Position numbers and translations under genes: made by a program. Shown here in pieces: positions 2,715 to 40,261 of a stretch of DNA of 64,000 bases (its first letter is position 1; the number at the start of each line of letters is the position of its first letter). Location of the stretch: assembly GCF_024700885.2 (NCBI RefSeq), contig NZ_CP117016.1. One strand, 5' to 3'. A model generated the notes under the pieces. It made no database searches. It saw only the letters and a list, made by a program, of their open reading frames with translations, and had not been told where the DNA came from. Source of the DNA: Escherichia coli (GTDB lineage: Bacteria; Pseudomonadota; Gammaproteobacteria; Enterobacterales; Enterobacteriaceae).

Positions 2715-4190
<1,476 letters not shown>

Positions 4191-8141: not shown

Positions 8142-8267
8142 CATAAACACAAGTAAAAATCAATAAGTTAGATAATTATCAAAGACTTACAGACACACAA
8201 AAACACAGCCAACCACAACAAATAACAGGGATGTGGTCACTTTGTGGATCATATCGCCGCCATAAAT

Positions 8268-9069: not shown

Positions 9070-10047
9070 TTAAGCACCTCCTAGTGGATTAAACCTCACC
9101 GCATCCTGCAGGTAATCCGGCGCAAGATGGGCATAAATCATCGTTGTCTGAATCTTTGCGTGCCCCAGAATTTTCTGGAGCGTGAGAATATTGCCACCGT
9201 TCATCATGAAATGACTGGCGAAGGTGTGGCGCAGCGCATGAACAGCCTGGCCGTCAGGAACATCAGGTGCGACCGTTTTGATGACATCGCGAACCAATGA
9301 ATAATCCAGCGTCGGAAACACCAGTTTCCCGCCCCGTTTTTTGATCTTTTCAAACAGGCTTTCAGAAATAGGAACGGTACGGTTTTTGCTGTTCTTCGTT
9401 TTTGAAAAAGTGATTCGACAATGAAGAACACGGCGCTGCTCCAGTACCGCTACCTCGCCCCATCGCGCCCCGGTCGACAGAAGGATTTCGACAGCCAGCC
9501 GTTCATCGGGATTTTCAGCCAGTGCATCCAGCAACTGAACACATTCAGACTTACTCAGATATCCCATTTCGCGCTCGTTAACCTTCATTCCTTTAAGGCC
9601 TTGAACGGGGTTATCGTTAAGAAAATGGCCGGATGAGATGAGTGCGGTAAACATCGCGCTTAACGCCCCAATCTCTCGATTTATGGTGCTGGGCTGTATC
9701 CCCTGCTCTATCCTGGACACACGTAGCTCGGTGAGCATCGTTGTATTAAGTCTATGCACGCACGGGTCATCCATTGCCTCACTCAAGCGCAGCAATTTAA
9801 GGCGCGTGTTATGCCCTGACTTCATTAGCTGGCCGTGGTATTTCCACCACAAGTCAATAAGCACTGACAGAGGACGGCGATCAATAGAGTTTCCTTTCCA
9901 CTCATTGTTATGCTGTTGCGCCAGCACCCACCGCTCATATAAAACTGCATCCGATTTCGTTTTAAATTTTTTGCGAATGCGTTTGCCTTTACGCCCCTCA
10001 GGGCGCATGTCAAGAAGATACCCTCCCGGAATTGATTTTATGCTCAT
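9070..10047 (-). CDS. int: P2-type tyrosine integrase
   Basis: Recognised similarity to P2 Int, including ...LSTGARWGE..., HALRHTFASHF and the C-terminal catalytic Tyr region; start set at MSIKS, the track ORF starts at an upstream GTG. Confidence 0.85.
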   Translation of the reverse strand: MSIKSIPGGYLLDMRPEGRKGKRIRKKFKTKSDAVLYERWVLAQQHNNEWKGNSIDRRPLSVLIDLWWKYHGQLMKSGHNTRLKLLRLSEAMDDPCVHRLNTTMLTELRVSRIEQGIQPSTINREIGALSAMFTALISSGHFLNDNPVQGLKGMKVNEREMGYLSKSECVQLLDALAENPDERLAVEILLSTGARWGEVAVLEQRRVLHCRITFSKTKNSKNRTVPISESLFEKIKKRGGKLVFPTLDYSLVRDVIKTVAPDVPDGQAVHALRHTFASHFMMNGGNILTLQKILGHAKIQTTMIYAHLAPDYLQDAVRFNPLGGA

Positions 10048-11873: not shown

Positions 11874-12077
11874 ATGGCAATTAAGCATTTTCCTGTCGTT
11901 CGTTTCACTTCCAGAGGACGTGAATACGAAGTCGACGAACGCCTGATTACCACAATCGACAAACACCGCTCAGAAAAGGATGCACACCACATCTATCTCA
12001 CTGACGGTACTTACTTCTGCGCCACTAATGTGGCGCGGGTGAATCTTATCCGACAGGTACAGGATCCACGCAAATGA
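11874..12077 (+). CDS. Prophage early-region hypothetical protein
   Basis: 67-aa ORF, stop/start overlap with the next ORF. Confidence 0.4.
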   Translation: MAIKHFPVVRFTSRGREYEVDERLITTIDKHRSEKDAHHIYLTDGTYFCATNVARVNLIRQVQDPRK

Positions 12078-15703: not shown

Positions 15704-16663
15704 ATGAAAATTTGTATCGACGACGGCTCCACCAACATCAAGCTGGCATGGACTGAGAACGGCGAACGCCGCAACGCCATCAGCCCGAACAGCTTCAAGT
15801 CGGAATGGTCTGCGCCGTTCGGTGGCACGCAGCCCGCGAACTACATGCTTGATGGCGTGCGCTATGGTTTTGATCCGGTCAGCGATCGCTTTATCCAGAC
15901 GACCGACACACAATACCAGTACAGCGATGTGAATGTCATTGCCATTCATCACGCGCTGGTCAAATCAGGCATCACGCCACAGGAGGTGGATGTGGTTGTC
16001 ACCCTGCCACTGAGCGAGTATTTCGACACAAACGCACAGCCGGACATGGCCAACATCAACCGCAAAAAAGCAAACGTTATGCGCCCGGTGGAATACCAGA
16101 ACGGCGAAGCATTCACTATCCGTAATGTACGGGTTATGCCTGAATCCATTCCGGCTGGCTTTAAAGCACTGGCTGACATGAGTCCGTTTGAATCCCTGCT
16201 GATTGTGGATTTAGGTGGAACCACGCTGGATGTGGCAAAGGTTCAGGGACAACTGGCAGGTATCAGCCAGGTGTTTTGCGATCCACACGTAGGCGTTTCC
16301 CTGATGGCCGATGCAGTACTGTCGGTGATGGCCACTAACGGTATGCGTACCAGTCACCACATCGCCAATACCATTATCGAACATCGCCATGATGAAGCCT
16401 GGCTGCGCCAGCACATCCACAATGACGCGCATTACGCCAGCCTGATGGCGGTTATTCGTGAAAAGGAAGAAACACTGAAACAACGCGTGATCCGCGCGCT
16501 GGCGGGTTTTTCGGGTTACGGGCGGGTGATGGTTGTCGGTGGCGGGGCGGAGATTGTGGCACCCGCTATCCGCGAAGCCTGCGGAGTTAATGCGACTTTC
16601 ATCGCGGACGGGGTGCCACAGTTTGCTCTGGTTAATGGGCTGTACGCAATGGACAAGGAGTAA
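15704..16663 (+). CDS. ParM/StbA-like actin-family segregation ATPase
   Basis: 319 aa; IDDGSTNIKL, YSDVNVIAIHHAL, VMPESIPAG, LIVDLGGTTLD, VMVVGGGAE, LVNGLY match remembered R1 ParM blocks. Confidence 0.8.
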   Translation: MKICIDDGSTNIKLAWTENGERRNAISPNSFKSEWSAPFGGTQPANYMLDGVRYGFDPVSDRFIQTTDTQYQYSDVNVIAIHHALVKSGITPQEVDVVVTLPLSEYFDTNAQPDMANINRKKANVMRPVEYQNGEAFTIRNVRVMPESIPAGFKALADMSPFESLLIVDLGGTTLDVAKVQGQLAGISQVFCDPHVGVSLMADAVLSVMATNGMRTSHHIANTIIEHRHDEAWLRQHIHNDAHYASLMAVIREKEETLKQRVIRALAGFSGYGRVMVVGGGAEIVAPAIREACGVNATFIADGVPQFALVNGLYAMDKE

Positions 16664-16667
16664 ACCA

Positions 16668-16979
16668 ATGACGACACCAACCAGGCGGATAAGTTTCTAT
16701 CTGAAGCCTGCGGCCGTCAAGAACGAAAGCGAAGCATGCGCCTGGCTGGACAGCCTTACACCGGAAGCCCGCAAAAGCGGCCAACGCGTGGCTTTTCTGG
16801 CCGGGCTGGCACTTCTGAAAATGAATCCGGCAGAGGCTTACCGACTGGCTGCATGGGCTGACGATGAGGCGTTATCAGTGACACAAACCAGGACAGAACG
16901 CCCCCTGTCACAGCCAGTACCAACCGCACAGATAACCAGTCAGATGGCCGGAAATATCAGGGCGTTATTTCCTGAATAA
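16668..16979 (+). CDS. ParR/StbB-like centromere-binding adaptor
   Basis: RRISFYLKP...AFLAGLAL...IRALFP resembles R1 ParR; immediately downstream of parM-like gene. Confidence 0.65.
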   Translation: MTTPTRRISFYLKPAAVKNESEACAWLDSLTPEARKSGQRVAFLAGLALLKMNPAEAYRLAAWADDEALSVTQTRTERPLSQPVPTAQITSQMAGNIRALFPE

Positions 16980-21375: not shown

Positions 21376-21529
21376 TGCTCCCCCTGAGTAATTACAGGAA
21401 GATTACCCGCGCGCGAAACTGTTCTCCTTAACCCCCTGTTCTGGCCGTTTTCTTACAACAAAAGCCCTTTGTATCAGCCTGTTACGCTTTGCCATCATGA
21501 CTGAAGAACCAGTCAGAGGGGCAAAAACT

Positions 21530-24884: not shown

Positions 24885-25084
24885 TGAAAGTGAAGGCACT
24901 GGAAGGCGACACCGTGGATTCGCTCTGTTTCCGGTACTACGGCACGACGCAGGGCGTCACCGAAAAGGTGCTGGATGCCAACCCCGGACTCTGTCAGCAG
25001 GTATTTCTGGACGCCGGGCAGGAAGTGGAGATGCCGGAGCCGGAGAAGAAGAAACGAGAAATGATTCAGTTGTGGGGGGAGTAG
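24884..25084 (+). CDS. X: Tail protein X-like small protein
   Basis: 66-aa ORF MKVKALEGDTVDSLCFRYYG, ATG overlapping the L stop (TGATG). Confidence 0.65.
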   Translation: MKVKALEGDTVDSLCFRYYGTTQGVTEKVLDANPGLCQQVFLDAGQEVEMPEPEKKKREMIQLWGE

Positions 25085-25086
25085 CA

Positions 25087-25410
25087 GTGAGCACCATTCA
25101 AACAGGGATCACAGAGCAGGTTATTGCATGGCTCTTTGACCACCTGCCAACGGTGTATGCAGTAGGCGCGGCGGTCAGCATTTCCGCGCTGATGAGTCTT
25201 TATGACGGACGAACACTGGTTCAGACCGTAACGGGATCGCTGGCGTGCGGCGTTCTTGCCATGGCCGTGGCCGGGTCGTTGCGCTTCTTCGGTTTTCCTG
25301 AAGATGCCGTGACGTTTATCGGCGCATCAATCGGTTTTATGGGGGCAGAGAAAGCACGCGACAAGGTTATTGCGGCCTTTAATCGCAGGGTGAAGGAGAA
25401 GGACGAATGA
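25087..25410 (+). CDS. Putative holin
   Basis: GTG start after strong RBS ggggggag; two hydrophobic segments and a charged C-terminus; directly upstream of endolysin. Confidence 0.6.
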   Translation: MSTIQTGITEQVIAWLFDHLPTVYAVGAAVSISALMSLYDGRTLVQTVTGSLACGVLAMAVAGSLRFFGFPEDAVTFIGASIGFMGAEKARDKVIAAFNRRVKEKDE

Positions 25411-25799
25411 GCAACACATTTAAATTCAGCAGCCGGAGCGAAAAGAATTTGCAGGGCGTAAATCCTGATCTGGTGAAAGTGACCCGACGGGCACTGGAAA
25501 TTTCGGAAGTGGATTTTGGTATCACCGAAGGGTTGCGCAGCCGTTACCGCCAGAAGCAACTTGTGGCCACAGGTAAGAGCCAGACCATGAACAGCCGCCA
25601 CCTTACGGGACATGCCGTGGATGTTGTGGCTTATATCGGCAGCCAGGTGTCATGGGAATGGCCGCTGTACGAAAAAATCGCAGCCGCATTCAGACAGGCC
25701 AGCCGGGAACTGAATATTCCGGTGGAATGGGGCGGCGACTGGAAGACCCTGAAAGACGGACCGCATTTTCAGTTACCACACGGAGCCTATCCGGCATGA
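25407..25799 (+). CDS. Endolysin, peptidase M15 (L-alanyl-D-glutamate peptidase) type
   Basis: 130 aa with SRHLTGHAVD zinc-binding motif; sits where P2 has lysozyme K. Confidence 0.75.
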   Translation: MSNTFKFSSRSEKNLQGVNPDLVKVTRRALEISEVDFGITEGLRSRYRQKQLVATGKSQTMNSRHLTGHAVDVVAYIGSQVSWEWPLYEKIAAAFRQASRELNIPVEWGGDWKTLKDGPHFQLPHGAYPA

Positions 25800-26203
25800 A
25801 GCTCTGGCCAACGCTTGGCGTCGCTTTCCTTCTGATTGTCGGATGGGGAACATCCATGCGTCTGTCATGGTCGCTGGGCCGGGAGAACGCCAGAAACGAA
25901 GCGCAGGCCAGCACCCTGAAACGTACCGCCGACACCCTGAATATCATCAGCGCCGGGGTACAGGATATGCAGCAGGTGCTGGCGCAACTCCGCGTGGAAA
26001 ATCAGCAACGCAATCAGGACGGAGAGGCAAGACGTGAACAGCTACGCAACGATATTGCAAAAGATGAATGCGCCCACGCTTTGCCTGACGCTCGTTTTAC
26101 TGACAGGCTGCGCAGGCACGCAGAACGCGCTACGGCCAGCGCCGTCAGTCCGGCTTATACCGCAGACGCTGACCATACCGGTAACGCCTCCCCCCTTCCC
26201 TGA
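25796..26203 (+). CDS. i-spanin (LysB/Rz-like)
   Basis: N-terminal TM segment then coiled coil; ATGA overlap with endolysin. Confidence 0.65.
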   Translation: MKLWPTLGVAFLLIVGWGTSMRLSWSLGRENARNEAQASTLKRTADTLNIISAGVQDMQQVLAQLRVENQQRNQDGEARREQLRNDIAKDECAHALPDARFTDRLRRHAERATASAVSPAYTADADHTGNASPLP

Positions 26204-26354
26204 CACTCCCACATGGGGAAATCTCGGTATATGGGGCGACCGCCTTCTGGATGCACTGGAAACCTGTAACGCGGATAAACGGGCCATTGAATTACTGGAA
26301 CAGCGCAGGCTGCAACGACTGAACAACGAGGACAACAACCATGCTGAAAACTGA
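26064..26354 (+). CDS. o-spanin lipoprotein (LysC/Rz1-like), overlapping LysB in another frame
   Basis: MNAPTLCLTLVLLTGC lipobox and Pro-rich mature region; overlapping spanin architecture. Confidence 0.65.
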   Translation: MNAPTLCLTLVLLTGCAGTQNALRPAPSVRLIPQTLTIPVTPPPFPDTPTWGNLGIWGDRLLDALETCNADKRAIELLEQRRLQRLNNEDNNHAEN

Positions 26355-26808
26355 TTCCCTGCGTGAAGCCATGACCCGTTCATGCCGATGGTGTCAGGCC
26401 AACCCGGAAAAATTCACCATTTTCGTGGAGAGCGGCAACATTGAAACGACCGGAGAAACGCCCTCGTTTGTTTACCGCTATCAGATGGTGATGTTTGTCA
26501 TGGATTACGCCGGGGAGCTGGACGACCTCACGTTGCCGCTACTGGCGTGGTTATCCGAAAATCAGCCACAGTTGTTGCTCAATCCGGAGCGTAATCAGGA
26601 CATCAAATTTTCCGCCGTTATCAATGACGATGACAGCGCCGATCTCCTGTTTACGCTCCCCCTGCGGGAACGCGTTCGCATTACGCGCAACAGTCAGGGC
26701 ACACCGCAGGCAGAACACCTGCCGGAGCCAAAACCCCGTCTGCCCTCTTCCGAAGGCGACTGGTCACATGTATTCCAGGATGTGACGTGGGGTGAAAGCG
26801 ATGGATAA
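26341..26808 (+). CDS. R: Tail completion protein (P2 gpR-like)
   Basis: 155-aa ORF in the conserved position. Confidence 0.7.
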   Translation: MLKTDSLREAMTRSCRWCQANPEKFTIFVESGNIETTGETPSFVYRYQMVMFVMDYAGELDDLTLPLLAWLSENQPQLLLNPERNQDIKFSAVINDDDSADLLFTLPLRERVRITRNSQGTPQAEHLPEPKPRLPSSEGDWSHVFQDVTWGESDG

Positions 26809-27436
26809 GGCATTCACCCGTGTGGATGAAACCTTTGAGGCCATCCGCGACAGCCTGAATCAGCAGGCCATCAATAACATCGCCAGAAAGCTGGCACAGG
26901 ATTTACGCCGCGCCCAGCAGGCACGTATCCGGTCACAGAAAGCGCCGGACGGGACCGCGTGGACACCTCGCAGACGCCGCGTAACCCGGATACAGGAGCG
27001 CATTCGCTTTATCTGGAATAACGAAGCACGCACGCTGAAAAACTGGCATCACGACACGGGGAAATACGGGCGAACCATTACCGGGTGGGATGAGGATAAA
27101 AACAATATCCGCACGTTTTACCGGGATGACATCGACCGTTTTCTGGAAATACGCACCCGGCGCATCAACCAGGACAGCACAAAGCGCGTCCCCATGTTCG
27201 TAAAACTGCGCACCGCCCGCTACCTGAAAGCCCGTGCAGATGCTTCCGGTGTGACGGTGGGTTACAGCGGCGTGGCCGCACGTATTGCACGCGTTCATCA
27301 GTTCGGTGAGCGCGATCAGGTTGCGCCGGGCATTTTCACCGATTACTCGGTACGTGAGCTGCTGGGTATCAGCCTGGCAGATGAACGCCTGATTTATAAC
27401 ACGGTGCTGGGCCGGATTGCGGAGGCTGTACGGTGA
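26801..27436 (+). CDS. S: Tail completion/virion morphogenesis protein (P2 gpS-like)
   Basis: ATG 26801 with RBS; a GTG at 26792 is an alternative start. Confidence 0.7.
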   Translation: MDKAFTRVDETFEAIRDSLNQQAINNIARKLAQDLRRAQQARIRSQKAPDGTAWTPRRRRVTRIQERIRFIWNNEARTLKNWHHDTGKYGRTITGWDEDKNNIRTFYRDDIDRFLEIRTRRINQDSTKRVPMFVKLRTARYLKARADASGVTVGYSGVAARIARVHQFGERDQVAPGIFTDYSVRELLGISLADERLIYNTVLGRIAEAVR

Positions 27437-28014
27437 GCGCAGAACTCATGCGACTGCTGAGCAACATCATCCGCACCGGGATCATCTCTGAAGTTGATGA
27501 GGAATCCTGGTGCGTGCGCGTTCGCAGCGGCGAACTGGAAACAGGCTGGTTGCGCTGGAACACCACGCGCGCGGGAGCCTTCAATGTGTGGCTGCCGCCA
27601 TCACCAGGCGAACAGGTGGTAATTGCCTGCATTGGCGGCAACCCGGAAACCGCCATGATAATTGGCAGCCTGTGGAGTGATGCCATTCCGGCCCCCGGCA
27701 AAAGCCTGAAAGAAATCGTGGTCAGCGCGCCGGATGGCGCGGTGTTCCGCTACGACGCGGCCGCAGGCGCACTGAGCGCCAGCGGCATGAAAACAGCCAC
27801 CCTGCAGGCATCCGTCAGCGTGACACTGGATACGCCCGTCGTGGAATGCACAGACCTTCTGAGAACGGCGACGCTTGACGTCACAAAAGGGGGAAAGATG
27901 AGCGGCAATATCACGCACAGCGGCGGCAATTTCACCTCAAACGGCATCACAGTGCATACGCATAAACACGGTGGCGTTAAAGGTGGCAGCGATTCGACAG
28001 GAGGCCCGCAGTGA
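27433..28014 (+). CDS. V: Baseplate spike protein (P2 gpV-like)
   Basis: 193-aa ORF from GTG; glycine-rich C-terminus; P2 V-like. Confidence 0.8.
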   Translation: MSAELMRLLSNIIRTGIISEVDEESWCVRVRSGELETGWLRWNTTRAGAFNVWLPPSPGEQVVIACIGGNPETAMIIGSLWSDAIPAPGKSLKEIVVSAPDGAVFRYDAAAGALSASGMKTATLQASVSVTLDTPVVECTDLLRTATLDVTKGGKMSGNITHSGGNFTSNGITVHTHKHGGVKGGSDSTGGPQ

Positions 28015-28361
28015 CAACCCGCTATACAGGAATGAACCCGGACGGAACGGGAAACCTGAACGATATGGAGCACCTGAAACAGTCAGTCAAGGACATCCTG
28101 ACCACCCCGCTGGCAAGCCGGGTTATGCGACGGGAATATGGCAGCCTTGTGCCTGATTTGATAGACGAACCCATGAATAACACCACGCGTCTGCAATGCA
28201 TGAGTGCTGCCGTGATTGCGCTGACACGATGGGAACCCCGCATTGCCCTGGATGCCATCGACGTTGTCTGGAAGGCAGGAGGCCGCGCCGGGGTGACGCT
28301 GTCGGGCACTGTCATGCAGACCATGCAGAATGTTGAATTAACCATCACGCTGAGGGAGTAA
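28011..28361 (+). CDS. W: Baseplate protein (P2 gpW-like)
   Basis: 116-aa ORF from GTG with RBS aggagg. Confidence 0.75.
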   Translation: MTTRYTGMNPDGTGNLNDMEHLKQSVKDILTTPLASRVMRREYGSLVPDLIDEPMNNTTRLQCMSAAVIALTRWEPRIALDAIDVVWKAGGRAGVTLSGTVMQTMQNVELTITLRE

Positions 28362-28364
28362 ATC

Positions 28365-29261
28365 ATGCCTGCCGTTGACCTTTCACAGTTACCGGAACCC
28401 GCCATCATCGCGGAGCCTGACTTTGAGGCAATTCTGGCTGACACAAAGGCCATGATGATTGCGTCCTATCCCGCCGAACAGCGTGAAGCCGTTTCCGCCG
28501 CGCTGGAGCTGGAATCGGAACCCCTTAACGTTATCGCTCAAACCATGTCGTTTCGTGAAATGCTGTTACGCCAGCGGGTCAATGAGGGTGCACGCGCCTG
28601 CATGCTAAGCCACAGCGCCGGGACAGACCTGGACAACCTCGCGGGCAATATGAACACAAAGCGCCTGGTTATCACTCCGGCAACGGATACCACCGACGCA
28701 GTGATGGAAAGTGACACCTCGCTGAGACTACGGGCGCAACGGGCATATGACGGTCTGAGTGTTGCTGGCCCGTCAGGTGCATACGAGTATTTTGCACGCA
28801 GCGCCAGCGGTCTGGTACGCGATGCGCGGGCCATCAGCCCGTCTCCGGCCAACGTGACGGTTTCCATCCTGTCCACTGAGGGCGACGGCACAGCAACGGA
28901 GGCGTTGCTTAATACCGTTCGCGCCGTTCTGAATGCAGAGCATACCCGCCCGGTGGCCGACCGCCTGACCGTACAGAGTGCCAGAATCGTGACATGGCGG
29001 CTGAATGCAAAACTGTACTTTTACCCCGGCCCGGAATCCGAACCTATTCTGGCCGCGGCGGAATCGTCATTCAGGAAGTGGCTGGCTGAACAGGGGCTTA
29101 TCGGTCAGGACGTGGCGTTGTCCGCCATTGCTGCCGCACTTCATGTACACGGCGTGCAACGCGTGGAGATAATCGAACCCACACAGAATATGGCCATCAG
29201 CGACATACAGGCGGCGCGCTGTGAGTCATTCACCATCAGCGAAGGTGGGCGTAATGAGTAA
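28365..29261 (+). CDS. J: Baseplate wedge protein (P2 gpJ-like)
   Basis: 298-aa ORF in the conserved position. Confidence 0.8.
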   Translation: MPAVDLSQLPEPAIIAEPDFEAILADTKAMMIASYPAEQREAVSAALELESEPLNVIAQTMSFREMLLRQRVNEGARACMLSHSAGTDLDNLAGNMNTKRLVITPATDTTDAVMESDTSLRLRAQRAYDGLSVAGPSGAYEYFARSASGLVRDARAISPSPANVTVSILSTEGDGTATEALLNTVRAVLNAEHTRPVADRLTVQSARIVTWRLNAKLYFYPGPESEPILAAAESSFRKWLAEQGLIGQDVALSAIAAALHVHGVQRVEIIEPTQNMAISDIQAARCESFTISEGGRNE

Positions 29262-29784
29262 TTCACTGTTACCGCCATCAGCCAGCAGTTTCATGCGTCG
29301 TGCCGAAGCTGTCGGAACGCGCATTACAGACATCCCGGTAGACCTCAACACGCTGTGGTCGCCGGACACCTGCCCGGTGCACCTGCTGCCTTATCTCGCC
29401 TGGGCATTTTCCGTTGACCGCTGGGATCGCAACTGGCCGGAAGAGACAAAGCGACAGGTGATTCGTGATGCATGGCTGATACACCGACACAAGGGAACCA
29501 TCAGCGCACTGCGCCGGGCCATTGAGCCGCTGGGATACCTCATTCGTGTGTCTGAGTGGTGGGAGTTCGGCGGAGAACCGGGAACATTTACCGTTGAAGT
29601 GGGCACGCTGGACAGTGGCGTGACGGAGGAAATGTATCTGGAAATGGAGCGGTTGATTGCTGATGCCCGCCCGGTCAGCCGCCACATGACAGGGCTGAAT
29701 ATCATTCAGGAGATCCCGGGAGATATTTTCGCGGCGGCAGCAACTTACGACGGTGAAGTCATTACCATTTATCCGGACGATTAA
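29254..29784 (+). CDS. I: Baseplate protein (P2 gpI-like)
   Basis: ATG overlapping J stop; a GTG at 29221 is the track start. Confidence 0.75.
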
Positions 29785-29786
29785 GC

Positions 29787-31976
29787 ATGAGTACCACAAC
29801 ACGTAAATTTAAAACCGTTATCACCGATACGGGTGCCAAAAAATTAGCTCAGGCAGCCGCGCCAGATGGTAAGCTTGTCCGCCTGACTCATATGGCCGTG
29901 GGCGACGGTGGCGGTACATTGCCCACACCAGACAGTAAGCAGACCCGTCTGGTGCATGAGGTGTGGCGACATACTGTTAATCGCGTCTTCCTGGACGCAA
30001 CACATCAGAACCGCATTATTGCGGAGCTGGTTATTCCTCCTGAAACGGGCGGATTCTGGATCCGGGAAATTGGTGTATTTGATGAGCACGGCGATTTGAT
30101 CGCGGTTGGCAATACAGCCGAAAGTTACAAGCCAACCGTTGCCGAAGGGTCAGGACGTGCACAAACATTTCGCACCATTCTGACCGTCTCCAGCACTGCC
30201 ACTGTGGCGCTTACCGTGGATAACACCATGGTTATGGCCACAGTGGATTACGTGAATGACAAACTGAAAGAACATGAACAGTCACGACGTCACCCGGACG
30301 CCTCGCTGACCGCAAAAGGCTTTGTTCAACTCAGTAGCGCCACCAACAGCACGTCTGAAGCACTGGCCGCAACGCCGAAAGCGGTCAAGGCAGCCTATGA
30401 CCTTGCTAACGGGAAATATACCGCACAGGACGCCACTATAGCGCGAAAAGGCCTTGTTCAGCTCAGTAGCGCCACCAACAGCGATTCTGAAACGCTGGCG
30501 GCAACACCAAAGGCGGTAAAGGCAGCATATGACCTTGCTAACGGGAAATATACCGCACAGGACGCTACCACAGCGCGAAAAGGTCTTGTCCAGCTCAGTA
30601 GTGCGACCAACAGCACATCCGAAATGCTGGCGGCAACACCAAAGGCGGTAAAGGCAGCATATGACCTTGCTAACGGGAAATATACCGCACAGGACGCTAC
30701 GACAGCACAAAAAGGAATTGTCCAGCTCAGTAGTGCAACCAACAGCGCATCTGAAACGCTTGCTGCGACATCGAAAGCAGTGAAAGCAGCTAATGACAAT
30801 GCGAATGGTCGGGTACCTTCTGCCCGTAAGGTGAATGGTAAGGCGCTTTCAGCGGATATAACACTGACACCGAAAGATATTGGTACGCTTAACTCAACAA
30901 CTATGTCATTCAGCGGTGGTGCTGGTTGGTTCAAATTAGCAACGGTAACCATGCCGCAGGCGAGTTCTGTTGTTTCAATTACGTTGATTGGTGGGGCTGG
31001 ATATAACGTCGGTTCACCTCAACAGGCAGGTATATCTGAACTTGTTTTGCGTGCAGGTAATGGTAATCCGAAGGGGATTACTGGTGCTTTATGGCAGCGC
31101 ACATCGGCAGGGTTTACAAATTTTGCCTGGGTCAATACATCTGGTGATACTTACGATATTTACGTTGCAATCGGAAATTATGCGACTGGTGTAAATATTC
31201 AATGGGATTATACCAGTAATGCCAGCGTAACGATTCATACGTCACCTGCATATTCTGCTAATAAGCCGGAAGGGTTAACGGACGGTACAGTTTATTCACT
31301 CTATACGCCATCAGAGCAGTTTTATCCGCCTGGCGCACCAATCCCGTGGCCATCGGATACCGTTCCGTCTGGTTATGCCCTGATGCAGGGGCAGACTTTT
31401 GACAAATCTGCCTACCCGAAACTTGCAGTCGCTTATCCGTCAGGCGTGATCCCTGATATGCGTGGCTGGACGATTAAGGGCAAGCCCGCCAGTGGTCGTG
31501 CCGTATTGTCTCAGGAACAGGACGGCATTAAATCGCACACCCACAGCGCCAGCGCATCCAGTACGGATTTGGGTACGAAAACCACATCTTCGTTTGATTA
31601 CGGCACTAAATCAACGAATAACACGGGTGCACATACCCACAATGTATCTGGTACTGCAAATAGTGCTGGCGCACATACTCATACCGTTCCATTAAGGAGA
31701 CCAAACAGTGGAGGTATGAATTTCGACTGGCTTGATGGTGCATCAAGTGGCACGGTGGTGGGGAATGGAACTGTGCCTTCTTCTGGCGCACATACCCACT
31801 CAGTATCAGGTACCGCTACAAGTGCTGGGGCACATGCACACACTGTTGGTATTGGCGCTCATACGCACTCTGTTGCGATTGGTTCACATGGACACACCAT
31901 CACCGTTAACGCTGCTGGTAACGCGGAAAACACCGTTAAAAACATCGCATTTAATTATATTGTGAGGCTTGCATAA
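29787..31976 (+). CDS. H: Tail fibre protein (P2 gpH-like) with internal tandem repeats and His-rich C-terminal domain
   Basis: 729 aa; four 44-aa repeats ([15 protein letters not shown]...[15 protein letters not shown]) and C-terminal GAHTH(S/T)V repeats. Confidence 0.85.
30315..30800 (+). repeat. Four tandem 132-bp repeats within tail fibre gene H
   Basis: Units begin at 30315, 30447, 30579 and 30711; the fourth diverges in its second half. Confidence 0.8.
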
Positions 31977-32593
31977 TGGCATTCAGAATGAGTGAACAAT
32001 CACGTACTGTAAAAATTTATAACCTGCTGGCCGGAACTAATGAGTTTATTGGTGAAGGTGACGCATATATTCCACCTCATACAGGGCTGCCAGCTAATTC
32101 TACAGATATCGCCCCACCGGAAATTCCTGCTGGCTTTGTGGCAGTTTTTAACAGTGAAAATGAATCGTGGAATATTGTTGAAGACCATCGTGGTAAAACG
32201 GTCTATGACGTGGCATCGGGGGACGCGTTGTTTATTTCTGAGCCCGGACCGCTACCAGAGAATGTCACCTGGTTGTCGCCAGCAGGGGAGTATCAGAAGT
32301 GGGACGGCGTATCCTGGGTGAAGGATGAGGAAGCAGAAAAACTGTTTCGGATACGGGAAGCGGAAGAGAAAAAGGCAAGGTTGATCCAGGAAGCAACAGA
32401 TAACATCGCAATTCTGCAGGATGCAGTTAATCTTGAAATAGCAACAAACGAGGAAAATTCACAACTGGATTCCTGGAGAAAATACAGAGTATTAGTGAGT
32501 AGAATTGACACCAGTACAGCTCCGGATATCGTATGGCCAGAGCTGATGAATCAGGGTTATGTGCGGGAGGACGAGCAGATAACTTCAGACTGA
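31976..32593 (+). CDS. G: Tail fibre assembly chaperone (P2 gpG-like)
   Basis: 205-aa ORF starting on the H stop (TAATG). Confidence 0.8.
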
Positions 32594-33120
32594 AATTTAG
32601 TGATGAATGTTGAATCATCAGGAATATCATGCAATACCAATGCATGAGCACCTATTGTGACATTGTTTCCTATACGCACTTTGCCACCAAGAATGGTGGC
32701 ATTACAACCAATGGTCACATTATGTCCTATAACAATATCCATATCATTAAAATCACCACGCAGCCCAATAGTTACCCCTGGTTTTATTGAACAATTTTCA
32801 CCGATTGTTACTTTGTGACCGATAACAACACTGTTGAGATAAGAAATATCAAAGCCTTTCCCTATATTTACAGTTAAAGGGACTGTTACATTATATTTAT
32901 CAAGAATGAAACGTTCTATTTTCCCCGCAATCTTCCGACAGTATCCGCCTTTATCAAAAAGGTACTTGGCTATGCGCCACCAAAATAAATAACGAACTCT
33001 TCTATGTTTTATTGCGCGAACAATTGCCTTTCGCCAGGAGAAAGGACGCTCGCTACCGATTACTTCATAGTGAATACAATCTTTAAGTTCATTAATATTC
33101 ATATCTCTATTATTCAGCAT
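32557..33120 (-). CDS. Low-GC cargo: hexapeptide-repeat (left-handed beta-helix) acetyltransferase
   Basis: 187 aa with repeated [LIV]GxxxxIG hexapeptides; about 30% GC; between G and the tail module. Confidence 0.7.
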
Positions 33121-33290
33121 AAGATAATCATGTGACCAATTATTGTAATAATTTTAATGGTATGTTTCTACTGGCTATCCAGCGCGCCTGATGTCCAGTA
33201 ACAAATCGTTAACACTAGTGCAATCAAATGGTGAGTGTTAAGACTGGCCACTTATTACCAGGTATGAGGGTATGAGTGGCCAGCATTAAA

Positions 33291-33785
33291 TCAGAACAGC
33301 CCTTTAACTGAACTGGCCGCGCTGTTAAGGGATGATGTCACTTTATCTTTGAAGCCGGACAGCATATCGCTGAACGATGAGGATTGCAGGCGCTCCCGCA
33401 AATCCTCATCACAGCGTTCAAGGGTCAGTGAAAATTCTATCTTTTTCGCCTTACCGTAGCGATCAAACTCGGAACGGGTCGTATTCGTTTCGGTCAGGAC
33501 ATACATGCCGTAAATCTGCCCGACGCCATCAATCAGAGGCCAGGGGCGTCCTGTATACGCCTGCGTGGTCAGCAGCGACAGCGACACTTCGCCACCTGTA
33601 ATTTCAGGATAAAGCACACCAGAAAGAACGATGCGATCATCACCTGCACCGATATACTGCCAGCTTGCTGAACGGTTAACGCGTTCATTTTTCACATGCC
33701 GCCAGCTTTTGTTTTGCTGTAACTGCTGATGCGGCAGCGTGCGCAGCTCAAAAACAAACATGCCGTAGATCATCATCATGGCCAT
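33291..33785 (-). CDS. U: Tail protein (P2 gpU-like)
   Basis: 164-aa ORF downstream of tape measure on the same strand. Confidence 0.7.
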   Translation of the reverse strand: MAMMMIYGMFVFELRTLPHQQLQQNKSWRHVKNERVNRSASWQYIGAGDDRIVLSGVLYPEITGGEVSLSLLTTQAYTGRPWPLIDGVGQIYGMYVLTETNTTRSEFDRYGKAKKIEFSLTLERCDEDLRERLQSSSFSDMLSGFKDKVTSSLNSAASSVKGLF

Positions 33786-33791
33786 GACTCC

Positions 33792-36608
33792 TCAATCTTT
33801 ATCGTAAAAACTGCCACGCCCGGCACGGGCGCGCCGTTCCATTTCTGCCCTGACCATTTCACCGACCAGTTTCGCCAGTTCGCGGGGATTCTGCGTAACA
33901 ACGTTATGCAGATGAACATGAATTTCACCACCAAATCCGGAGGCAACAGGCTCCCGGTTACGGAAAGTTACAGGAACTGATGCCACTGGAGATCGTATGG
34001 CCTCCGCCACCGGGCGGGAGCTGGCCGCAACAACAGGGACCAGCGCCGGAGGCAGCGGAGCCGGGACCACGGGTGTGATATTAATTGCGGGGGCAGGCTT
34101 ACTGACCTGCGCAATCTTCCGCTCCTGCCACTCCCCACGAACAGCAAGTGCGCGGGGCAGGTTCTTAAAGACAATATCGCCGGGGCCAATGCGTTTTTTC
34201 GTCTCATCAACCAGCTTACCTGTGTTATCAGCAATTTTGCTGAGTCTGCGTAGCGTCCCGGTATTGCTGTCTGTGAGCGGTTTGTTGTCTTTGGGTTTAT
34301 CACCTCCGGTGCCATTGCCATTTTCCACAGGCTTCGGCGGATTGATTTTCGCCAGGTCACCCTGAAGCAAGGCAACCTTGTCCTGAAGAATGGCCGCACG
34401 CTGTGCGTCTTCGATTTTCTTGCGCGCCCTTTCCGCTTCATCCGGAAGGACGCCAAGTTTTTCAAGTATCCACGCCAGCGTATCCAGTAGCATTTTTGCA
34501 GGTGTCAGAACAAGCTGTAACGCACCGCCAAGAACGTTACCGAATATCTCGCCAGCACTGGTACATTTATCCAGCGTTTCCTTGCTGGACTCCATCGGTG
34601 ACAGCAGCGATTTAAACCAGTTAAACACCTGGCTGATCCCGCTTCCGATTGCGTCAAAAACAGGACCAAACCGTTCAAAGGTTTCGCGCAACGGGGTCAG
34701 CCTTTCCATAATCCCGCTGAACACCCCGGCAAAAAATGCCCTGATGGGATCCCAGTATTTCCAGATAAGAACGGCAGCTCCGGCAAGCGCAGCCACGATA
34801 AGACCAACCGGACTGAACAGCGCCCCGATAGCGCCTCCCAGTAAAGAAACGGAACCCGTCACCATTCCCCACAGCGCAGGCAACACCCTGACGACATTCA
34901 TTGACCGGGTAAGAATGTCGAAACCAAGACGCAGGGTGGCCAGCTTCCCGTAAAGCACCCCAATAACCAGCGACAACGAGCCAATCGTTGCAGTCATTGC
35001 CAGCAACGCACCGCCTGCTATCAGTAGTTGGCGCGTCAGTACCGGATGGGCCTGCGCCAGCGAGGTGATTTTTTCAAGCACCCGCGTGAGCCACTGCGTG
35101 ACAGAACGCAGCGGACCGTCAACCAGATCACTGATGCGAATACGAAGACCTTCCCATGCGCTGTCGAGATTTTTCAGGTCCCCATCAAGATTATCGGCCA
35201 TTACTTTTGCGACGCGATCGGCCTCTCCCCTTGCCCCCTGCAATTCTCTGGTCAGTTTTTGCAGCTCTCCTGAACCAGCCGCCGCAACAAGCGTCTGCAA
35301 ACCAACGAACGCCTCTTCTCCGGCGATGTCCTTGAAGAAGGAAACCTGGTCCACCTGTCCGTATTTTTGTGTCGCCTTATAGAGATCAAGCAGCACATCC
35401 TCCATCGGGCGCATTTTGCCTCTGGCGTCAGCAACTGACACCCCCAGCTCTTTCAGTGCATCAGCCGCAGCTTTTGGCGGTGATGCAAGGCGGGACAGAC
35501 TTGCGCGCATGGCCGTACCAGCATCGCTTCCGCGAAGACCATTATTGGCAAGCATCCCGGCCATGGCCGCCGCTTCTTCAAGACTGATACCAAGTTTTGC
35601 GGCAACCGGACCGGTATACTTCATGGTTTCGCCCAGCGCGCGTAAATCAGTATTGGTCCGGGTGAATGTTGCTGTCAGTGTATCGCCAACCCGGTCCATT
35701 TGATCGGCTGTCAGGTTGAACTGTGTGAGGATATTGGAGCCTATATCAGCCGTCTCGCCGAGTTCGACGCCACCTGCCAGCGCCATATTAAGAACACCGG
35801 GCAATGCGGCCTGAATGGCCTGCGGAGTAAAACCAGCCATTGCCAGAAAGCTCTGCCCACTGGCGGCATCACTCGCAGTAAACTGTGTTTCAGAGCCAAG
35901 TTTTAACGCCTGCTCACGCAGCGCCTTAAACTGCGGGCTGTTTTTGTCGATTCGCGTCAGTGCCTGAACGCGGGACATCTCTTTGCCGAACCCGATCGCA
36001 GGCTGCAAAAAACGCCCGGCAGCATAGCCGCCCGCCGCTGCCGCACCAATTGCCAGCGCACCACCTGTTTTCAGTTTTCCCGCTGTTTCCTGCGCGCGCG
36101 AATACCGCTCACGCGCCCGCGTTACACGCGCAAGCGCCTGCCGTTCGCGTTCAAGCTGGTTGTTGTACTGTTCGGTGCGTCTGATGGCCTGCTGGATGGT
36201 GTTATCGCTGCCTGTCAGGGAAATGCCGTGGCGTTTCAGCTCTCCGCCAAGTTCCCGCATTTTCTGAATTTCCCGTGTGCGCGATTCATTCAGGCGTTCA
36301 AGCCGGGTGCTTAACTGCTGCATCAGCTTTTGTTGTTTTTCGCTGAGCACTGTACCCGTGCGTTGTAACTGATTAAGGGCGTTAAGCTGGCGTCGTGCTT
36401 TCACGATGCCCGCATCCGCTTTACTGACAGCGTCACGGGCGCGCTCAAATGAACGCGCCTGACGCTCGAGATTTTTGATCGCCCCCTGCGTTCGCTGGAT
36501 GGAGTCACCAAACTGCCCCATCAGGCGGCGGGCGTTTTCGGCAGGCCGGGTCAGCCTGTCAACGGCGCTGAAAGCGACCCGGATATCAAGAGTCTTCATT
36601 GTCTGCAT
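33792..36608 (-). CDS. T: Tail tape measure protein (P2 gpT-like)
   Basis: About 940 aa, long coiled-coil N-terminal half, Gly/Ala-rich membrane-like segments; start could be 36608, 36599 or GTG 36635. Confidence 0.8.
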   Translation of the reverse strand: MQTMKTLDIRVAFSAVDRLTRPAENARRLMGQFGDSIQRTQGAIKNLERQARSFERARDAVSKADAGIVKARRQLNALNQLQRTGTVLSEKQQKLMQQLSTRLERLNESRTREIQKMRELGGELKRHGISLTGSDNTIQQAIRRTEQYNNQLERERQALARVTRARERYSRAQETAGKLKTGGALAIGAAAAGGYAAGRFLQPAIGFGKEMSRVQALTRIDKNSPQFKALREQALKLGSETQFTASDAASGQSFLAMAGFTPQAIQAALPGVLNMALAGGVELGETADIGSNILTQFNLTADQMDRVGDTLTATFTRTNTDLRALGETMKYTGPVAAKLGISLEEAAAMAGMLANNGLRGSDAGTAMRASLSRLASPPKAAADALKELGVSVADARGKMRPMEDVLLDLYKATQKYGQVDQVSFFKDIAGEEAFVGLQTLVAAAGSGELQKLTRELQGARGEADRVAKVMADNLDGDLKNLDSAWEGLRIRISDLVDGPLRSVTQWLTRVLEKITSLAQAHPVLTRQLLIAGGALLAMTATIGSLSLVIGVLYGKLATLRLGFDILTRSMNVVRVLPALWGMVTGSVSLLGGAIGALFSPVGLIVAALAGAAVLIWKYWDPIRAFFAGVFSGIMERLTPLRETFERFGPVFDAIGSGISQVFNWFKSLLSPMESSKETLDKCTSAGEIFGNVLGGALQLVLTPAKMLLDTLAWILEKLGVLPDEAERARKKIEDAQRAAILQDKVALLQGDLAKINPPKPVENGNGTGGDKPKDNKPLTDSNTGTLRRLSKIADNTGKLVDETKKRIGPGDIVFKNLPRALAVRGEWQERKIAQVSKPAPAINITPVVPAPLPPALVPVVAASSRPVAEAIRSPVASVPVTFRNREPVASGFGGEIHVHLHNVVTQNPRELAKLVGEMVRAEMERRARAGRGSFYDKD

Positions 36609-37124
36609 TCCCGCTGCGAAGTGCCGCCCGCTCACGCCAGCTAACCACTTCGCCGGGCGTCATCATGAAGATTTCGGCGGGCGACCAGTTAAAAATGGCG
36701 GCGATATCTGCCACCAGATCTTCGATGTGCTCAAAGCACACCAGCGTGATTACGCTGCCGTCTCCTGCACGCTCTTCGCGCCAGAGTCTGGCTCGCTCAT
36801 AAAATTTACAGCCACAGCGCACAACTGAATAAAATCGCGTGACGACATTTTTTTAATCATCACTTCATCCAGTCGTGGCGAGGTCACGCGAGGCAACAGC
36901 GTGAACATGGTATCCGCTTTCAGATTCAGCACATCAGACAGCGACAGACCACGCAGGGATCCAGCCTGTTCAATAGCCCCGGTGATCTCCACATACGTGA
37001 TTTTTTCGCCACCACGCTCAATTGGTCGGGTCAGTTTTACGCCACGTTCGACAGCCATATCCTCACCTGCCGTCACATCATCCACCACGGTGTTATTCCG
37101 GGTTTCAGTATCGATGTCTTTCAT
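36586..37124 (-). CDS. Tail assembly chaperone E+E' fusion by programmed -1 ribosomal frameshift
   Basis: Slippery heptamer A_AAT_TTT on the minus strand (36807-36801) in E frame; -1 frame continues ...KFYERARLW... to a stop at 36586. Confidence 0.6.
36750..37124 (-). CDS. E: Tail assembly chaperone (P2 gpE-like)
   Basis: 124-aa ORF between tail tube and tape measure. Confidence 0.7.
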   Translation of the reverse strand: MKDIDTETRNNTVVDDVTAGEDMAVERGVKLTRPIERGGEKITYVEITGAIEQAGSLRGLSLSDVLNLKADTMFTLLPRVTSPRLDEVMIKKMSSRDFIQLCAVAVNFMSEPDSGAKSVQETAA

Positions 37125-37179
37125 CAGTTTTCTCCTTTTCAGTCAGAGGCGACGCACTGCGTCGCCTGCATATTACTTA

Positions 37180-37692
37180 TCAGCCAAGCCCGAGCGCGGA
37201 ACGGATACGGTCAGGCAAAATGTCCTTGCCGTCCTTCCGGTAGATGTGGTTCAACAGGTCGATTTCCCACAGCGGGCGATCGTTAACGCTCAGCTTGTAG
37301 TAGGTGTTTTTGACAGCGTAAGTGTGTGATGTGGCTTCGCCCTGTTTGGCTTCCCCCATATCAATTTCCGTCACACGTCCGCGCATCTCGATTTCATACA
37401 GATCGCTTTCTGCATCGGTGTAGTATTCACCCGCAAAACGCAGCAGCGTGCCGTCAATCGTGCCGCCATATTTAAGGAACAGCGCACGAACAGCTCCCCC
37501 CATAACAAAACTCGCATCAAGCGCGGAGTCGTCCAGACCGAGATCAATACTTACCGCCCCCATCATGCCACCACCACGATAGCTGTCGGTTTTGCGCGTC
37601 AGTTTGGGCGGCGTGACGGATGTCACTTTACCCACTTCGTTTTCACCATCCACAAACAACGTAAAAAAGCGAAGATGTTTTGGTACAGCCAT
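37180..37692 (-). CDS. FII: Tail tube protein (P2 gpFII-like)
   Basis: 170-aa ORF directly downstream of sheath gene. Confidence 0.8.
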   Translation of the reverse strand: MAVPKHLRFFTLFVDGENEVGKVTSVTPPKLTRKTDSYRGGGMMGAVSIDLGLDDSALDASFVMGGAVRALFLKYGGTIDGTLLRFAGEYYTDAESDLYEIEMRGRVTEIDMGEAKQGEATSHTYAVKNTYYKLSVNDRPLWEIDLLNHIYRKDGKDILPDRIRSALGLG

Positions 37693-38876
37693 CAGGCACC
37701 TCCCAGCACCGCAAATGCGGGACCAAAGAATTCATCAGTAAACGTCTGGTAAAGCTCCATGTCTTCCAGTGGCGGAACGGGCGTATATTTGTAGCGAATA
37801 CGCACACGTCCCTGACGTAAATTCGTGGTGCCGTTATCCACCACGTCATACCAGCACTCCGCGCCAATCAGTTTCCCGGCAGTAACCAGCGAATCCAGTT
37901 TTGCCCTGATGGCACTGATAACATCCTTCACGTTCGCAGGCGTCAGTGGACTGTCGATAGTTTCAAACTGCGCTTCCGCAATTGAATCAGCCAGCACCTG
38001 TGCGGTTCGGGTATACACCTCAAAGATGTAGGCGTTCGTTTCCGGTGTGCGGTTGCCCCAGAAGCGGAACCCATTGCGACGAATAATGGTCGTGATTTCT
38101 TTGTTGTTGAGGCTGTTGGCATCGCTGTCTTCGGCCTGCAACGACCAGAACACATGCCTCGACATCCCCAGCACATTTTTAACCGGAACGTTGGACAGTG
38201 ATTTGTGCCACCCCTGCTCATGGTCAATGTACGCACGAAGGCCGCACGCATAGGCAGGCGCGGGGAACGTTTCGTTTTTGCCACTTTTCGGGTTGTAGGC
38301 GATGAAGTCCGGCCATAAGAGCATCACCTCACGTTCGTTGAATTTCTGGCGGTAGGTAATCGCCTCAGCCATCGTGTTACAGCCGTGACATGAGGCATAC
38401 ACAAACGCGCGCAGTTTACCTGCAATCACGCACAGGGATTTTGTTACAGCCTCCGTGTCCAGCTCCGGCGCGGCCAGAATACGCGGACGGTATCCGATGC
38501 TTTCATCCTGCTCTGCAACAAGCAGCGCATACATCCCCGTATAGCTGCCGTCATCCTCAGAACCACCGATAACCAGTTGATCCTGCGTCTTTCCGTCTTC
38601 TTCTTTGTGTTCAGCCACGCGAACGACAATCACCTTTGTGCTCACCTGGTCTGCGATGGCCTTAAGCGCACGATAAAGCGTCCCCGTTGTCCCGCATTTT
38701 CCCAGCACGTCATTGACGCGGGTCAGCAGTGTGGGCTTGTTCAGCGGGAACAGCTTCGCGTCCGCATCATCCGCCGTTGCCACGATACCGATAACGCTGG
38801 AATCAACATCGTTAATCGCTGTTACCAGGTCGGTATTTTCCGTAACACGGGCACCATGAAAACGAGTTTCACTCAT
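37692..38876 (-). CDS. FI: Contractile tail sheath protein (P2 gpFI-like)
   Basis: 394 aa; LIRR(N/D)GFRFWGNRT and YTPVPPLE blocks match remembered P2 FI. Confidence 0.85.
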   Translation of the reverse strand: MSETRFHGARVTENTDLVTAINDVDSSVIGIVATADDADAKLFPLNKPTLLTRVNDVLGKCGTTGTLYRALKAIADQVSTKVIVVRVAEHKEEDGKTQDQLVIGGSEDDGSYTGMYALLVAEQDESIGYRPRILAAPELDTEAVTKSLCVIAGKLRAFVYASCHGCNTMAEAITYRQKFNEREVMLLWPDFIAYNPKSGKNETFPAPAYACGLRAYIDHEQGWHKSLSNVPVKNVLGMSRHVFWSLQAEDSDANSLNNKEITTIIRRNGFRFWGNRTPETNAYIFEVYTRTAQVLADSIAEAQFETIDSPLTPANVKDVISAIRAKLDSLVTAGKLIGAECWYDVVDNGTTNLRQGRVRIRYKYTPVPPLEDMELYQTFTDEFFGPAFAVLGGA

Positions 38877-39033
38877 AGCTTCAGCCCCTTGTATCCGTTA
38901 AATGATTCGGCAACAATCATCACCCACCACGCGCGTAATCTCACCCCTGCGCCGTTCTCCCACCACGGCGACAACAAAAAGCAGTAACCCCCTCCGCACG
39001 CACATGCGACCATGCCGCACAGGGAGGGAACAG

Positions 39034-40131
39034 ATGACCGACACCACCATGCAATTGCTCAGTCAGGGCACAGACCCCGTGAAAATGCCGGATTTTGATA
39101 TTCTCGCGGAGGGTAAAACGCTGTCAGGCGTGACAGAGCGCCTGATGAGCCTGTCACTGACCGACAACCGGGGATTTGAGGCGGACCAGCTCACCATCAC
39201 GCTGGATGATGCAGATGGTCAGTTGCAGCTACCGCCACGGGGCGCGCGCCTGACGGTTCTCATTGGCTGGAAAGGAGAACCGCTGACAGAAAAAGGCACT
39301 TACATTGTTGATGAAATCGCTCACGAAGGACCGCCGGACAGGCTGACTGTTTCAGCCAGAAGCGCAGATTTTCGGGATGAATTTAACGTTAAACGTGAGG
39401 TGTCCTGGCATGATGTGACCGTTGAGCGTGTGGTATCCGCCATCGCTCATCGGTACGGTCTGAAACCGCAAATCAGCGAAATGCTGATGGATATCGAAAT
39501 CGACCACGCCGACCAGACCGAAGAAAGCGACATGTCCTTTCTTACGCGCATGGCGGAAATGCTGGGCGCAATCACCACGGTAAAAAGCGGTAATCTGTTA
39601 TTCATTATGCCAGGCGGTGGCGTGAACGCACAGGGCCAGCCGTTGCCATCGTTCGCCATCACGCGCAGCAGTGGCGATCGCCATCAGTTCCGCATTGCTG
39701 ACCGCGAAGCGTATACGGGGGTACGCGCTTACTGGCTTGATCTTAATTACGGGAAAAAGAAAAAAGTCAGCGTGAAACGCCGTAAACCGAAAATGGAGAA
39801 AAGCAGTAGCCGTGAAGGCGACTATATGGAAGGTGCGGAAGGCAACGTGTTTGTGTTACGCAAGACTTATCAGAACGAACAGGCAGCAAGACGCGCTGCG
39901 GCGGCAAAGTGGCAGCAGCTACAACGCGGAGCCGCATCATTCTCCATCACACTGGCACGTGGACGCGCAGAACTCTACCCCGAAATGCATGGCACGGTAA
40001 CAGGATTTAAAAGCGAGATTGATAATCAGGACTGGATTATTGCAAAAGCCGAGCACACCATTGATAACAGCGGTTATACCACGCAGCTTGAACTTGAAAC
40101 AAAAATCCCTGAATGGATTGCGCAGACCTAA
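39034..40131 (+). CDS. D: Late control/tail protein D (P2 gpD-like)
   Basis: Start at MTDTTMQ with RBS agggaggg; the track ORF begins far upstream at a non-ATG. Confidence 0.75.
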   Translation: MTDTTMQLLSQGTDPVKMPDFDILAEGKTLSGVTERLMSLSLTDNRGFEADQLTITLDDADGQLQLPPRGARLTVLIGWKGEPLTEKGTYIVDEIAHEGPPDRLTVSARSADFRDEFNVKREVSWHDVTVERVVSAIAHRYGLKPQISEMLMDIEIDHADQTEESDMSFLTRMAEMLGAITTVKSGNLLFIMPGGGVNAQGQPLPSFAITRSSGDRHQFRIADREAYTGVRAYWLDLNYGKKKKVSVKRRKPKMEKSSSREGDYMEGAEGNVFVLRKTYQNEQAARRAAAAKWQQLQRGAASFSITLARGRAELYPEMHGTVTGFKSEIDNQDWIIAKAEHTIDNSGYTTQLELETKIPEWIAQT

Positions 40132-40146
40132 ATGGTGGGAAGATAC

Positions 40147-40185
40147 GGCACAGAGCCAACATAATATACCTGTTTGCTCTGTGCC
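40147..40185. other. Stem-loop (10-bp stem ggcacagagc/gctctgtgcc) between convergent D and the low-GC orphan
   Basis: Inverted repeat read from sequence; no clear U-tract, so terminator function is uncertain. Confidence 0.35.
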
Positions 40186-40261
40186 CGAAATAGGCATCAT
40201 AAACCTAACGATGAATTGATATGCAAGATTATAAAAAATCCGCTGACATTATTTCTCATCG

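Follow-up and report, generated by a model that had tools for sequence, protein, structure and literature searches.

Orientation of the tail genes

The tail genes FI, FII, E/E', T and U of a P2-like prophage in Escherichia coli lie on the strand opposite to their neighbours G and D, which raises two questions: how this arrangement arose, and how the genes on either side of the new FI/D junction are transcribed. The prophage is contained in a 64,000-nucleotide (nt) stretch of the E. coli chromosome (contig NZ_CP117016.1, assembly GCF_024700885.2), referred to here as the window, and all positions are those of the window unless stated otherwise. The locus is a P88-like peduovirus prophage of approximately 34 kb at about 8118–42503, between btuC and ihfA; the P88-like assignment is based on regional nucleotide identity and gene-wise amino acid (aa) identity, and the genus-defining measure is whole-genome identity. 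The inverted FI–U block is an ordinary feature and not an anomaly of this locus: in P88 and its relatives, a large group of P2-related phages that has already been sequenced, this order is normal and fixed. The best explanation as a whole, given a probability of roughly 0.8, is a single fixed ancestral inversion that has left an activator-binding dyad of the Ogr type between FI and D, where it most likely drives both.

Three sources agree on the layout of the region: the six-frame open reading frame (ORF) list, the PHROG assignments and the RefSeq annotation of the E. coli MLI114 chromosome, which is 100% identical over a 20-kb query (25000–45000). The first-pass annotation had placed FI, FII, E/E', T and U on the minus strand, running from 38876 down to 33291, with G and D on the plus strand, and all three sources bear this out. 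The first gene of the block encodes the tail sheath protein gpFI (37692–38876, minus strand; PHROG 23, E = 1e-125), which has 45% aa identity to P2 FI and 68–75% to its counterparts in other phages of the inverted type by tblastn. The next gene encodes the tail tube protein gpFII (37180–37692, minus), annotated as "phage major tail tube protein" in RefSeq and recovered by PHROG and tblastn; the "head closure" label carried by its PHROG family is a mislabel. E/E' follows (36586–37124, minus; PHROG 103), with gpE at 37124–36750. A −1 slippery heptamer, A_AAT_TTT, is located at 36807–36801, and frameshift reconstruction gives an open 178-aa E+E' fusion ending at 36586, from which the FI–U block looks intact and functional. 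The tape measure gene T (33792–36599, minus; PHROG 28) begins at 36599 in RefSeq within an ORF that is open to 36635, and the last gene, U (33291–33785, minus), encodes a gpU-like tail protein (PHROG 76, E = 5e-75) with 46.5% aa identity to P2 U and 99% to P88 U. Upstream of the block, the baseplate and tail-fibre genes V, W, J, I, H and G occupy 27448–32593 on the plus strand according to the ORFs, PHROG, RefSeq and tblastn.

Beyond FI, the gene D encodes gpD, a late control D or VgrG-like baseplate hub protein (39034–40131, plus; PHROG 52, E = 6e-166) with 49% aa identity to P2 D. Its start is most likely the ATG at 39034, because this codon is preceded by a GGAGGG Shine-Dalgarno sequence and the start region aligns with the D start of diverged relatives; an in-frame ATG at 38902 represents an unconserved upstream extension. 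With this start, the divergent FI/D intergenic region spans 38877–39033 (157 nt), the same interval as in the first-pass annotation. Public annotation of this region is inconsistent among records: PGAP shortens D to 39343–40131 in MLI114 and adds a pseudo fragment on the other strand, D is over-extended upstream in 500465-2 and KSP20, FI is over-extended across the promoter region in phiT5282H and ST16-OXA48phi5.4 (hereafter ST16), and the ogr gene of P88 is unannotated in RefSeq.

The first-pass account of P2 synteny was also right, as the P2 reference carries FI-FII-E-E'-T-U-D on the same strand as V–G. The window shares with the P2 F operon (pF: FI FII E E' T U D, followed by ogr) the same genes, internal order and E/E' frameshift, an Ogr-type activator gene downstream of D and a dyad upstream of FI, which in the window would likewise belong to a late promoter. 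The seven P2 genes, however, form one rightward operon that is co-directional with V–G, whereas in the window FI–U is inverted, D is split off to its own transcription unit, and aa identity to P2 is only 33–49%.

Distribution of the inverted gene order

As a departure from P2 the inversion holds, but reference P2-like genomes share this orientation, which makes it a trait of a lineage. U-T-E-FII-FI runs opposite to D in P88 (Xuanwuvirus), 500465-2 (Gemsvirus), phiT5282H (Novemvirus), 3LV2017 (Reginaelenavirus), ST16 (Reipivirus), Serratia phage KSP20 and Citrobacter phage phiSM. The V–G genes are also opposite to the FI–U block wherever they are present in these records; the KSP20 record is a 6-kb fragment that lacks V–G, and phiSM is represented here only by its DNA match. 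The U–D tail block of the window (33286–40120) has 94–96% nucleotide identity to 500465-2, phiSM, P884B11 and P88, with the same strand layout. P88 and 500465-2 have the same gene order and strands as the window from V to ogr. They differ in carrying an invertible G'H' tail-fibre segment and a DNA invertase where the window has an acetyltransferase gene and in their tail-fibre H/G alleles, and in P88 ogr directly follows D, while the window has an orphan gene between the two.

A 1157-nt probe of the FI/D junction, composed of the 5' end of FI, the intergenic region and the 5' end of D, matched end to end in 13 phage records. The junction is 98–99% identical to those of P88 and 500465-2. At 67–72% identity, and with both flanks divergent, it is present in phiT5282H (Enterobacter), KSP20, 3LV2017 (Klebsiella), ST16 and approximately 30 further Klebsiella prophage-derived records. 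Among complete E. coli genomes, 1108 of 5426 (approximately 20%) contain the divergent FI/D junction.

The P2 order is ancestral, as judged from its spread among phages. When a U+D fusion protein was used as the query, 403 of the 521 matching phage records had U and D adjacent on one strand, among them distant Burkholderia, Ralstonia, Pseudomonas, Vibrio and Mannheimia phages; U and D were split in about 44–49 of the 521.

Proposed origin of the inversion and its fixation

The proposed origin is that a segment comprising the F late promoter and FI-FII-E/E'-T-U flipped once in the common ancestor of this sub-lineage while D and ogr remained in place, and that the inverted arrangement, which does not switch and still allows a viable phage, then became fixed. 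The inverted order is functional, as both P88 and phiSM are active (PMC5285337, PMC6456863). A picture of the un-inverted state is provided, as judged from gene order, by SEN8 (Fels-2-like, Felsduovirus). As in P88, the tail block of this phage is preceded by an invertible tail-fibre segment and an invertase occupying the equivalent slot, but its FI…U-D genes are in the P2 orientation: the order is H-G-(G'H')-invertase-FI…U-D in SEN8 and H-G-(G'H')-invertase-U…FI-D in P88.

The common ancestry of the inverted phages is suggested by aa identities to the window taken from a local tblastn map, with P2, SEN8 and ST13-OXA48phi12.1 serving as the P2-type set. Identity to inverted-type phages and to the P2-type set, respectively, is 68–69% and 47–51% for Q, 68–78% and 44–46% for P, 68–75% and 45–49% for FI, 62–74% and 46–51% for U, and 69–73% and 49–53% for D. 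Inverted-type phages are therefore nearer to the window in every virion gene tested, including genes beyond the block, which points to one inversion in a common ancestor and counts against a foreign module inserted backwards. Two points weigh against a single origin: the identities are pairwise, from a handful of genomes and without a rooted phylogeny, and no trace was found of the recombination event that would have produced the inversion.

Other accounts of the arrangement have been considered. The first-pass annotation had allowed for an assembly artefact, in which the 5.6-kb block was mis-oriented during assembly. The difference from P2 is the only observation that speaks for it, and it is almost certainly wrong, as a second closed genome has the same arrangement at 100% identity and several more have it at over 99.5%, and the junction recurs in the 1108 complete genomes and in independently sequenced phages from five host genera. 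A programmed invertible segment, flipped by site-specific recombination like the Gin/Cin/Hin-type tail-fibre segments of relatives, would be suggested by the DNA invertase gene that abuts the U end of the block in P88 and 500465-2 and abuts FI in SEN8. The invertase of P88 and 500465-2 serves the tail-fibre segment, and neither PHROG nor RefSeq places an invertase gene in or beside the tail region of the window. The first-pass annotation had also proposed a search for inverted repeats at the block boundaries; none were present between 33121–33290 and 38877–39033 in the window, nor at the block ends of P88. A synthetic un-inverted U–D junction, assembled from the window sequence, matched none of the 1414 E. 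coli genomes in which these genes occur. With no boundary repeats and no alternative orientation, the inversion appears to be old and fixed, and a switch is very improbable. An origin mediated by the invertase was considered as well, and it was rejected when the best 26-mer match between the crossover-site arms of the P88 tail-fibre segment and the P88 block ends proved no better than shuffled sequence.

The mosaic structure of peduovirus genomes, and a neighbouring fibre and acetyltransferase region that is clearly of different history, would favour a replacement in which an FI–U module from another phage was inserted backwards instead of being inverted in place. This is unlikely, since FI, FII and U have 42–51% aa identity to the P2-type phages, like the un-inverted D, Q, P and J (44–54%), and within the inverted clade their identity (61–75%) is about that of D, Q and P (68–78%). 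There is also no break in guanine-cytosine (GC) content at the block.

Variant Ogr-type dyad in the FI/D intergenic region

A single ancestral inversion would have placed the promoter upstream of FI next to D, and the FI/D region (38877–39033) is conserved in length and layout, being 153–157 nt with the same internal arrangement in five diverged lineages. The first-pass annotation had reported no obvious TGT-N12-ACA element here. This is correct for the exact motif, which occurs 10 times in the window (16.6 expected) and in none of the late intergenic regions of the prophage. Comparison with relatives relaxed the motif to T[G/C]T-N12-ACA, and with one mismatch an Ogr-type dyad, TcT-N12-ACA (TCTCCCACCACGGCGACA), is present at 38956–38973, centred on 38964.5; it had been overlooked because its left half-site is degenerate. 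The P88 dyad differs from it by one spacer base, and the dyads aligned with it in the FI/D regions of 3LV2017 and KSP20 are perfect TGT-N12-ACA matches. In the five-lineage alignment, which has 70% mean column identity, the right half-site and its extension (ACAACAA, 38971–38977) form the longest invariant run between the start codons.

The P/O divergent late-promoter region of the prophage (21376–21529) is arranged similarly, with one TCT-N12-ACA dyad (TCTGGCCGTTTTCTTACA) at 21440–21457, the centre of which lies 73.5 nt from the P ATG and 81.5 nt from the O ATG. Across lineages, T[G/C]T-N12-ACA occurs once per FI/D region at the aligned position and exactly once per P/O region, the sole extra match being a degenerate one in the FI/D region of ST16. 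The FI/D dyad centre lies 82.5–88.5 nt from the FI ATG and 68.5–71.5 nt from the D ATG, and the P/O dyad centre 71.5–75.5 nt from the P ATG and 81.5–85.5 nt from the O ATG.

In every lineage, −10-like hexamers are found 35–41 nt outward of both dyad edges. In the window, the FI-side hexamer is GATGAT (38916–38921, minus) and the D-side hexamer is GACCAT (39008–39013, plus), both 35–40 nt from the dyad edge, with predicted starts near 38909 and 39020. All five lineages have an FI-side hexamer at this offset, to within 1 nt, that reads GATGAT, GATTAT or GAATAT; the D-side hexamer is GACCAT, AACCAT, AATCAT or GATCCT at the same offset, preceded in four relatives by a CGCGCGCG-type block that is degenerate in the window (CCGCACGCAC). 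At P/O, the P-side hexamer is TAATCT and the O-side hexamer is CATCAT in three lineages and GATGAT in ST16. A simple sigma-70 scan returned no promoter-like site in the FI/D region in either direction, as would be expected of activator-dependent promoters.

Predicted bidirectional late promoter

Since the dyad and the −10-like positions are conserved and their geometry is like that of P2 pP/pO, the FI/D region is most likely a second bidirectional, Ogr-dependent late promoter built like P2 PP/PO. The P2 promoter likewise has one dyad in a divergent region of 150–175 nt, with −10-like elements equally spaced on both sides. The P2 record assigns one activator site to pP and pO; its dyad is centred on 3071.5, at an equal distance of 55.5 nt from the mapped starts at 3016 and 3127. 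The lineage of the window would differ in using this design twice, at P/O and FI/D, and its left half-site is TCT as opposed to TGT; the starts and binding at P2 PP/PO were mapped experimentally, whereas those of the window are predicted from sequence.

The candidate activator, a protein of 86 aa, is encoded downstream of D at 41624–41884 (plus) and annotated in RefSeq as "ogr/Delta-like zinc finger family protein". The match to NCBIfam PRK09678 (E = 2e-11) scores 44 bits, below the cut-off of 116, which indicates a family member and not an equivalog. The N-terminal CxxC and distal CxxxxC motifs align with P2 Ogr, to which it has 36.5% aa identity. This protein would bind TcT-N12-ACA at 38956–38973. 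The leftward FI-FII-E/E'-T-U transcript would then start near 38909 and the rightward D transcript, a D-ogr unit in relatives, near 39020. Activator sites of the Ogr type are dyads, and one left between FI and D by the inversion would most likely drive both divergently, as the P/O site does in P2. That a one-directional F promoter became a second bidirectional Ogr-dependent promoter in this way, through the symmetry of the dyad and a new D-ward core promoter at the mirror-image distance, is given a little better than an even chance.

Several observations count against a shared site. The model takes its evidence from position and conservation, four of the six lineages have TCT in place of TGT as the left half-site, and the D-side hexamers GACCAT and AACCAT match the −10 consensus poorly. 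TST-N12-ACAAC by itself is also not enriched in the window (5 found, 3.9 expected). The annotated activator sites of P2 are imperfect too (TGT-N12-CCA). It is possible, if rather doubtful, that FI and D are transcribed independently, with the dyad serving the FI operon only, as an inverted PF, and D having an unrelated promoter of the sigma-70 or another type. The poor D-side hexamers would fit such an arrangement, as would the empty sigma-70 scan in both directions and the fact that the D side has a conserved block of its own, CGCGCGCGCATG-AACCAT. What argues for the shared promoter instead is that the spacing from dyad to D ATG is kept within 3 nt in five lineages of approximately 70% mean column identity, that the geometry mirrors P2 PP/PO, and that D encodes a late structural protein and needs late expression.

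Two further candidates were rejected. An extra TST-N12-ACAAC match inside gene O (21949) is unconserved in relatives and was taken as chance. A duplicated P-, O- or FI-side half was considered as the source of the D-side half of the promoter but was not supported, as anchored identities were 0.20–0.53 with no consistent excess.

Elsewhere among the late genes, no Ogr-type dyad was found upstream of V in the window, and S and V abut (27436–27448). On these grounds, V–G may be co-transcribed with the O operon in this lineage; P2 differs at S/V in having orf30 and a separate pV promoter. At the other end of the FI–U block, an inverted repeat directly 3' of the U stop (33238–33289, minus) forms a stable predicted hairpin (RNA fold of 33190–33300, −28.7 kcal/mol, z = −2.7) that could possibly mark the end of the FI–U transcript, though it has no U-rich tail. 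In P88, the space between the stop codons of the invertase gene and U contains a near-perfect hairpin (P88 record 11961–12002) that has T runs on either strand and is likely to terminate transcription in both directions where the genes converge; the hairpin of the window differs from it in lacking U-rich tails.

Cargo genes at the edges of the block

The convergent junction between G and U is occupied by a hexapeptide-repeat acetyltransferase gene (32557–33120, RefSeq start 33102; minus; PHROG 2154), as the first-pass annotation had noted, and this gene shares 37 nt with the 3' end of G. NCBIfam serine and sugar O-acetyltransferase models match its product, all below their cut-offs. The H-G-acetyltransferase cassette is 97% identical to that of phage vB_EcoM-613R2. 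The slot is variable, with Z/fun in P2 and the invertible G'H' segment and invertase in P88. Within the tail-fibre gene H, a 132-nt unit is repeated three times in tandem (30314–30808), the copies being 81–89% identical.

Between D and ogr lies an orphan cargo gene of 386 aa (40262–41422, minus; GC content 0.35–0.40), for which no match was found in PHROGs, NCBIfam, PADLOC or Pfam. The gap between D and ogr is a cargo slot, since the two genes are within approximately 50 nt of each other in P88 and most relatives; 500465-2 has a different gene here.

Prophage boundaries and other genes

The prophage is bounded by 25-nt direct repeats that are 96% identical and 34361 nt apart: a probable attL at 8118–8142, at the btuC-side end, and a probable attR at 42479–42503, adjoining ihfA. 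The integrase gene is at approximately 9070–10047, btuC is just beyond attL, and ihfA is at 42521–42820 in RefSeq. PHROG, RefSeq and the tblastn map together recover the full P2-family virion gene set, consisting of Q P | O N M L X, the lysis genes, R S V W J I H G, FI FII E T U D and ogr. Q, P, N, V and J have 96–100% aa identity to P88 in the tblastn map.

Genes for ParM and a partition protein are located at 15704–16979, between the replication endonuclease and portal genes, a position that in P2 is the old/tin hotspot. They fit the report that a partition system occupies this hotspot in about a quarter of P2-like phages (PMC9122126). A Hok/Gef family toxin gene (42075–42215) follows ogr just within the right end of the prophage, and P88 and 500465-2 have one as well. 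Beyond the prophage, the type III effector gene espL1 (50213–52111) lies in a low-GC stretch.

Implications for P2-related phages

The inverted gene order is already known in the sense that it became public with the deposition of the KSP20 fragment and the P88 genome, and it is now common to at least five named genera. Full-text searches and the P88, phiSM and P2-hotspot papers yielded no explicit description of the inversion or its promoter; the P88 paper goes no further than attributing "similar functional modules" to P88 and other P2-like phages. What is added here is the degenerate Ogr-type dyad and the case, drawn from its position and conservation, for a shared promoter of the PP/PO kind at FI/D.

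For a considerable fraction of the "P2-like" prophages of E. coli, P2 is the wrong reference for synteny, as approximately 20% of complete genomes have the P88-type order, and a strict TGT-N12-ACA search misses the late promoters of this lineage. If the FI/D promoter is bidirectional, the TcT half-site variant would be functional for this branch of Ogr-like activators, and D (D-ogr in most relatives) would be uncoupled from the sheath, tube and tape-measure genes. Such a promoter would refine the well-understood control of P2 late genes without introducing a new principle: a palindromic activator site would let an operon survive an inversion that severs its last gene.

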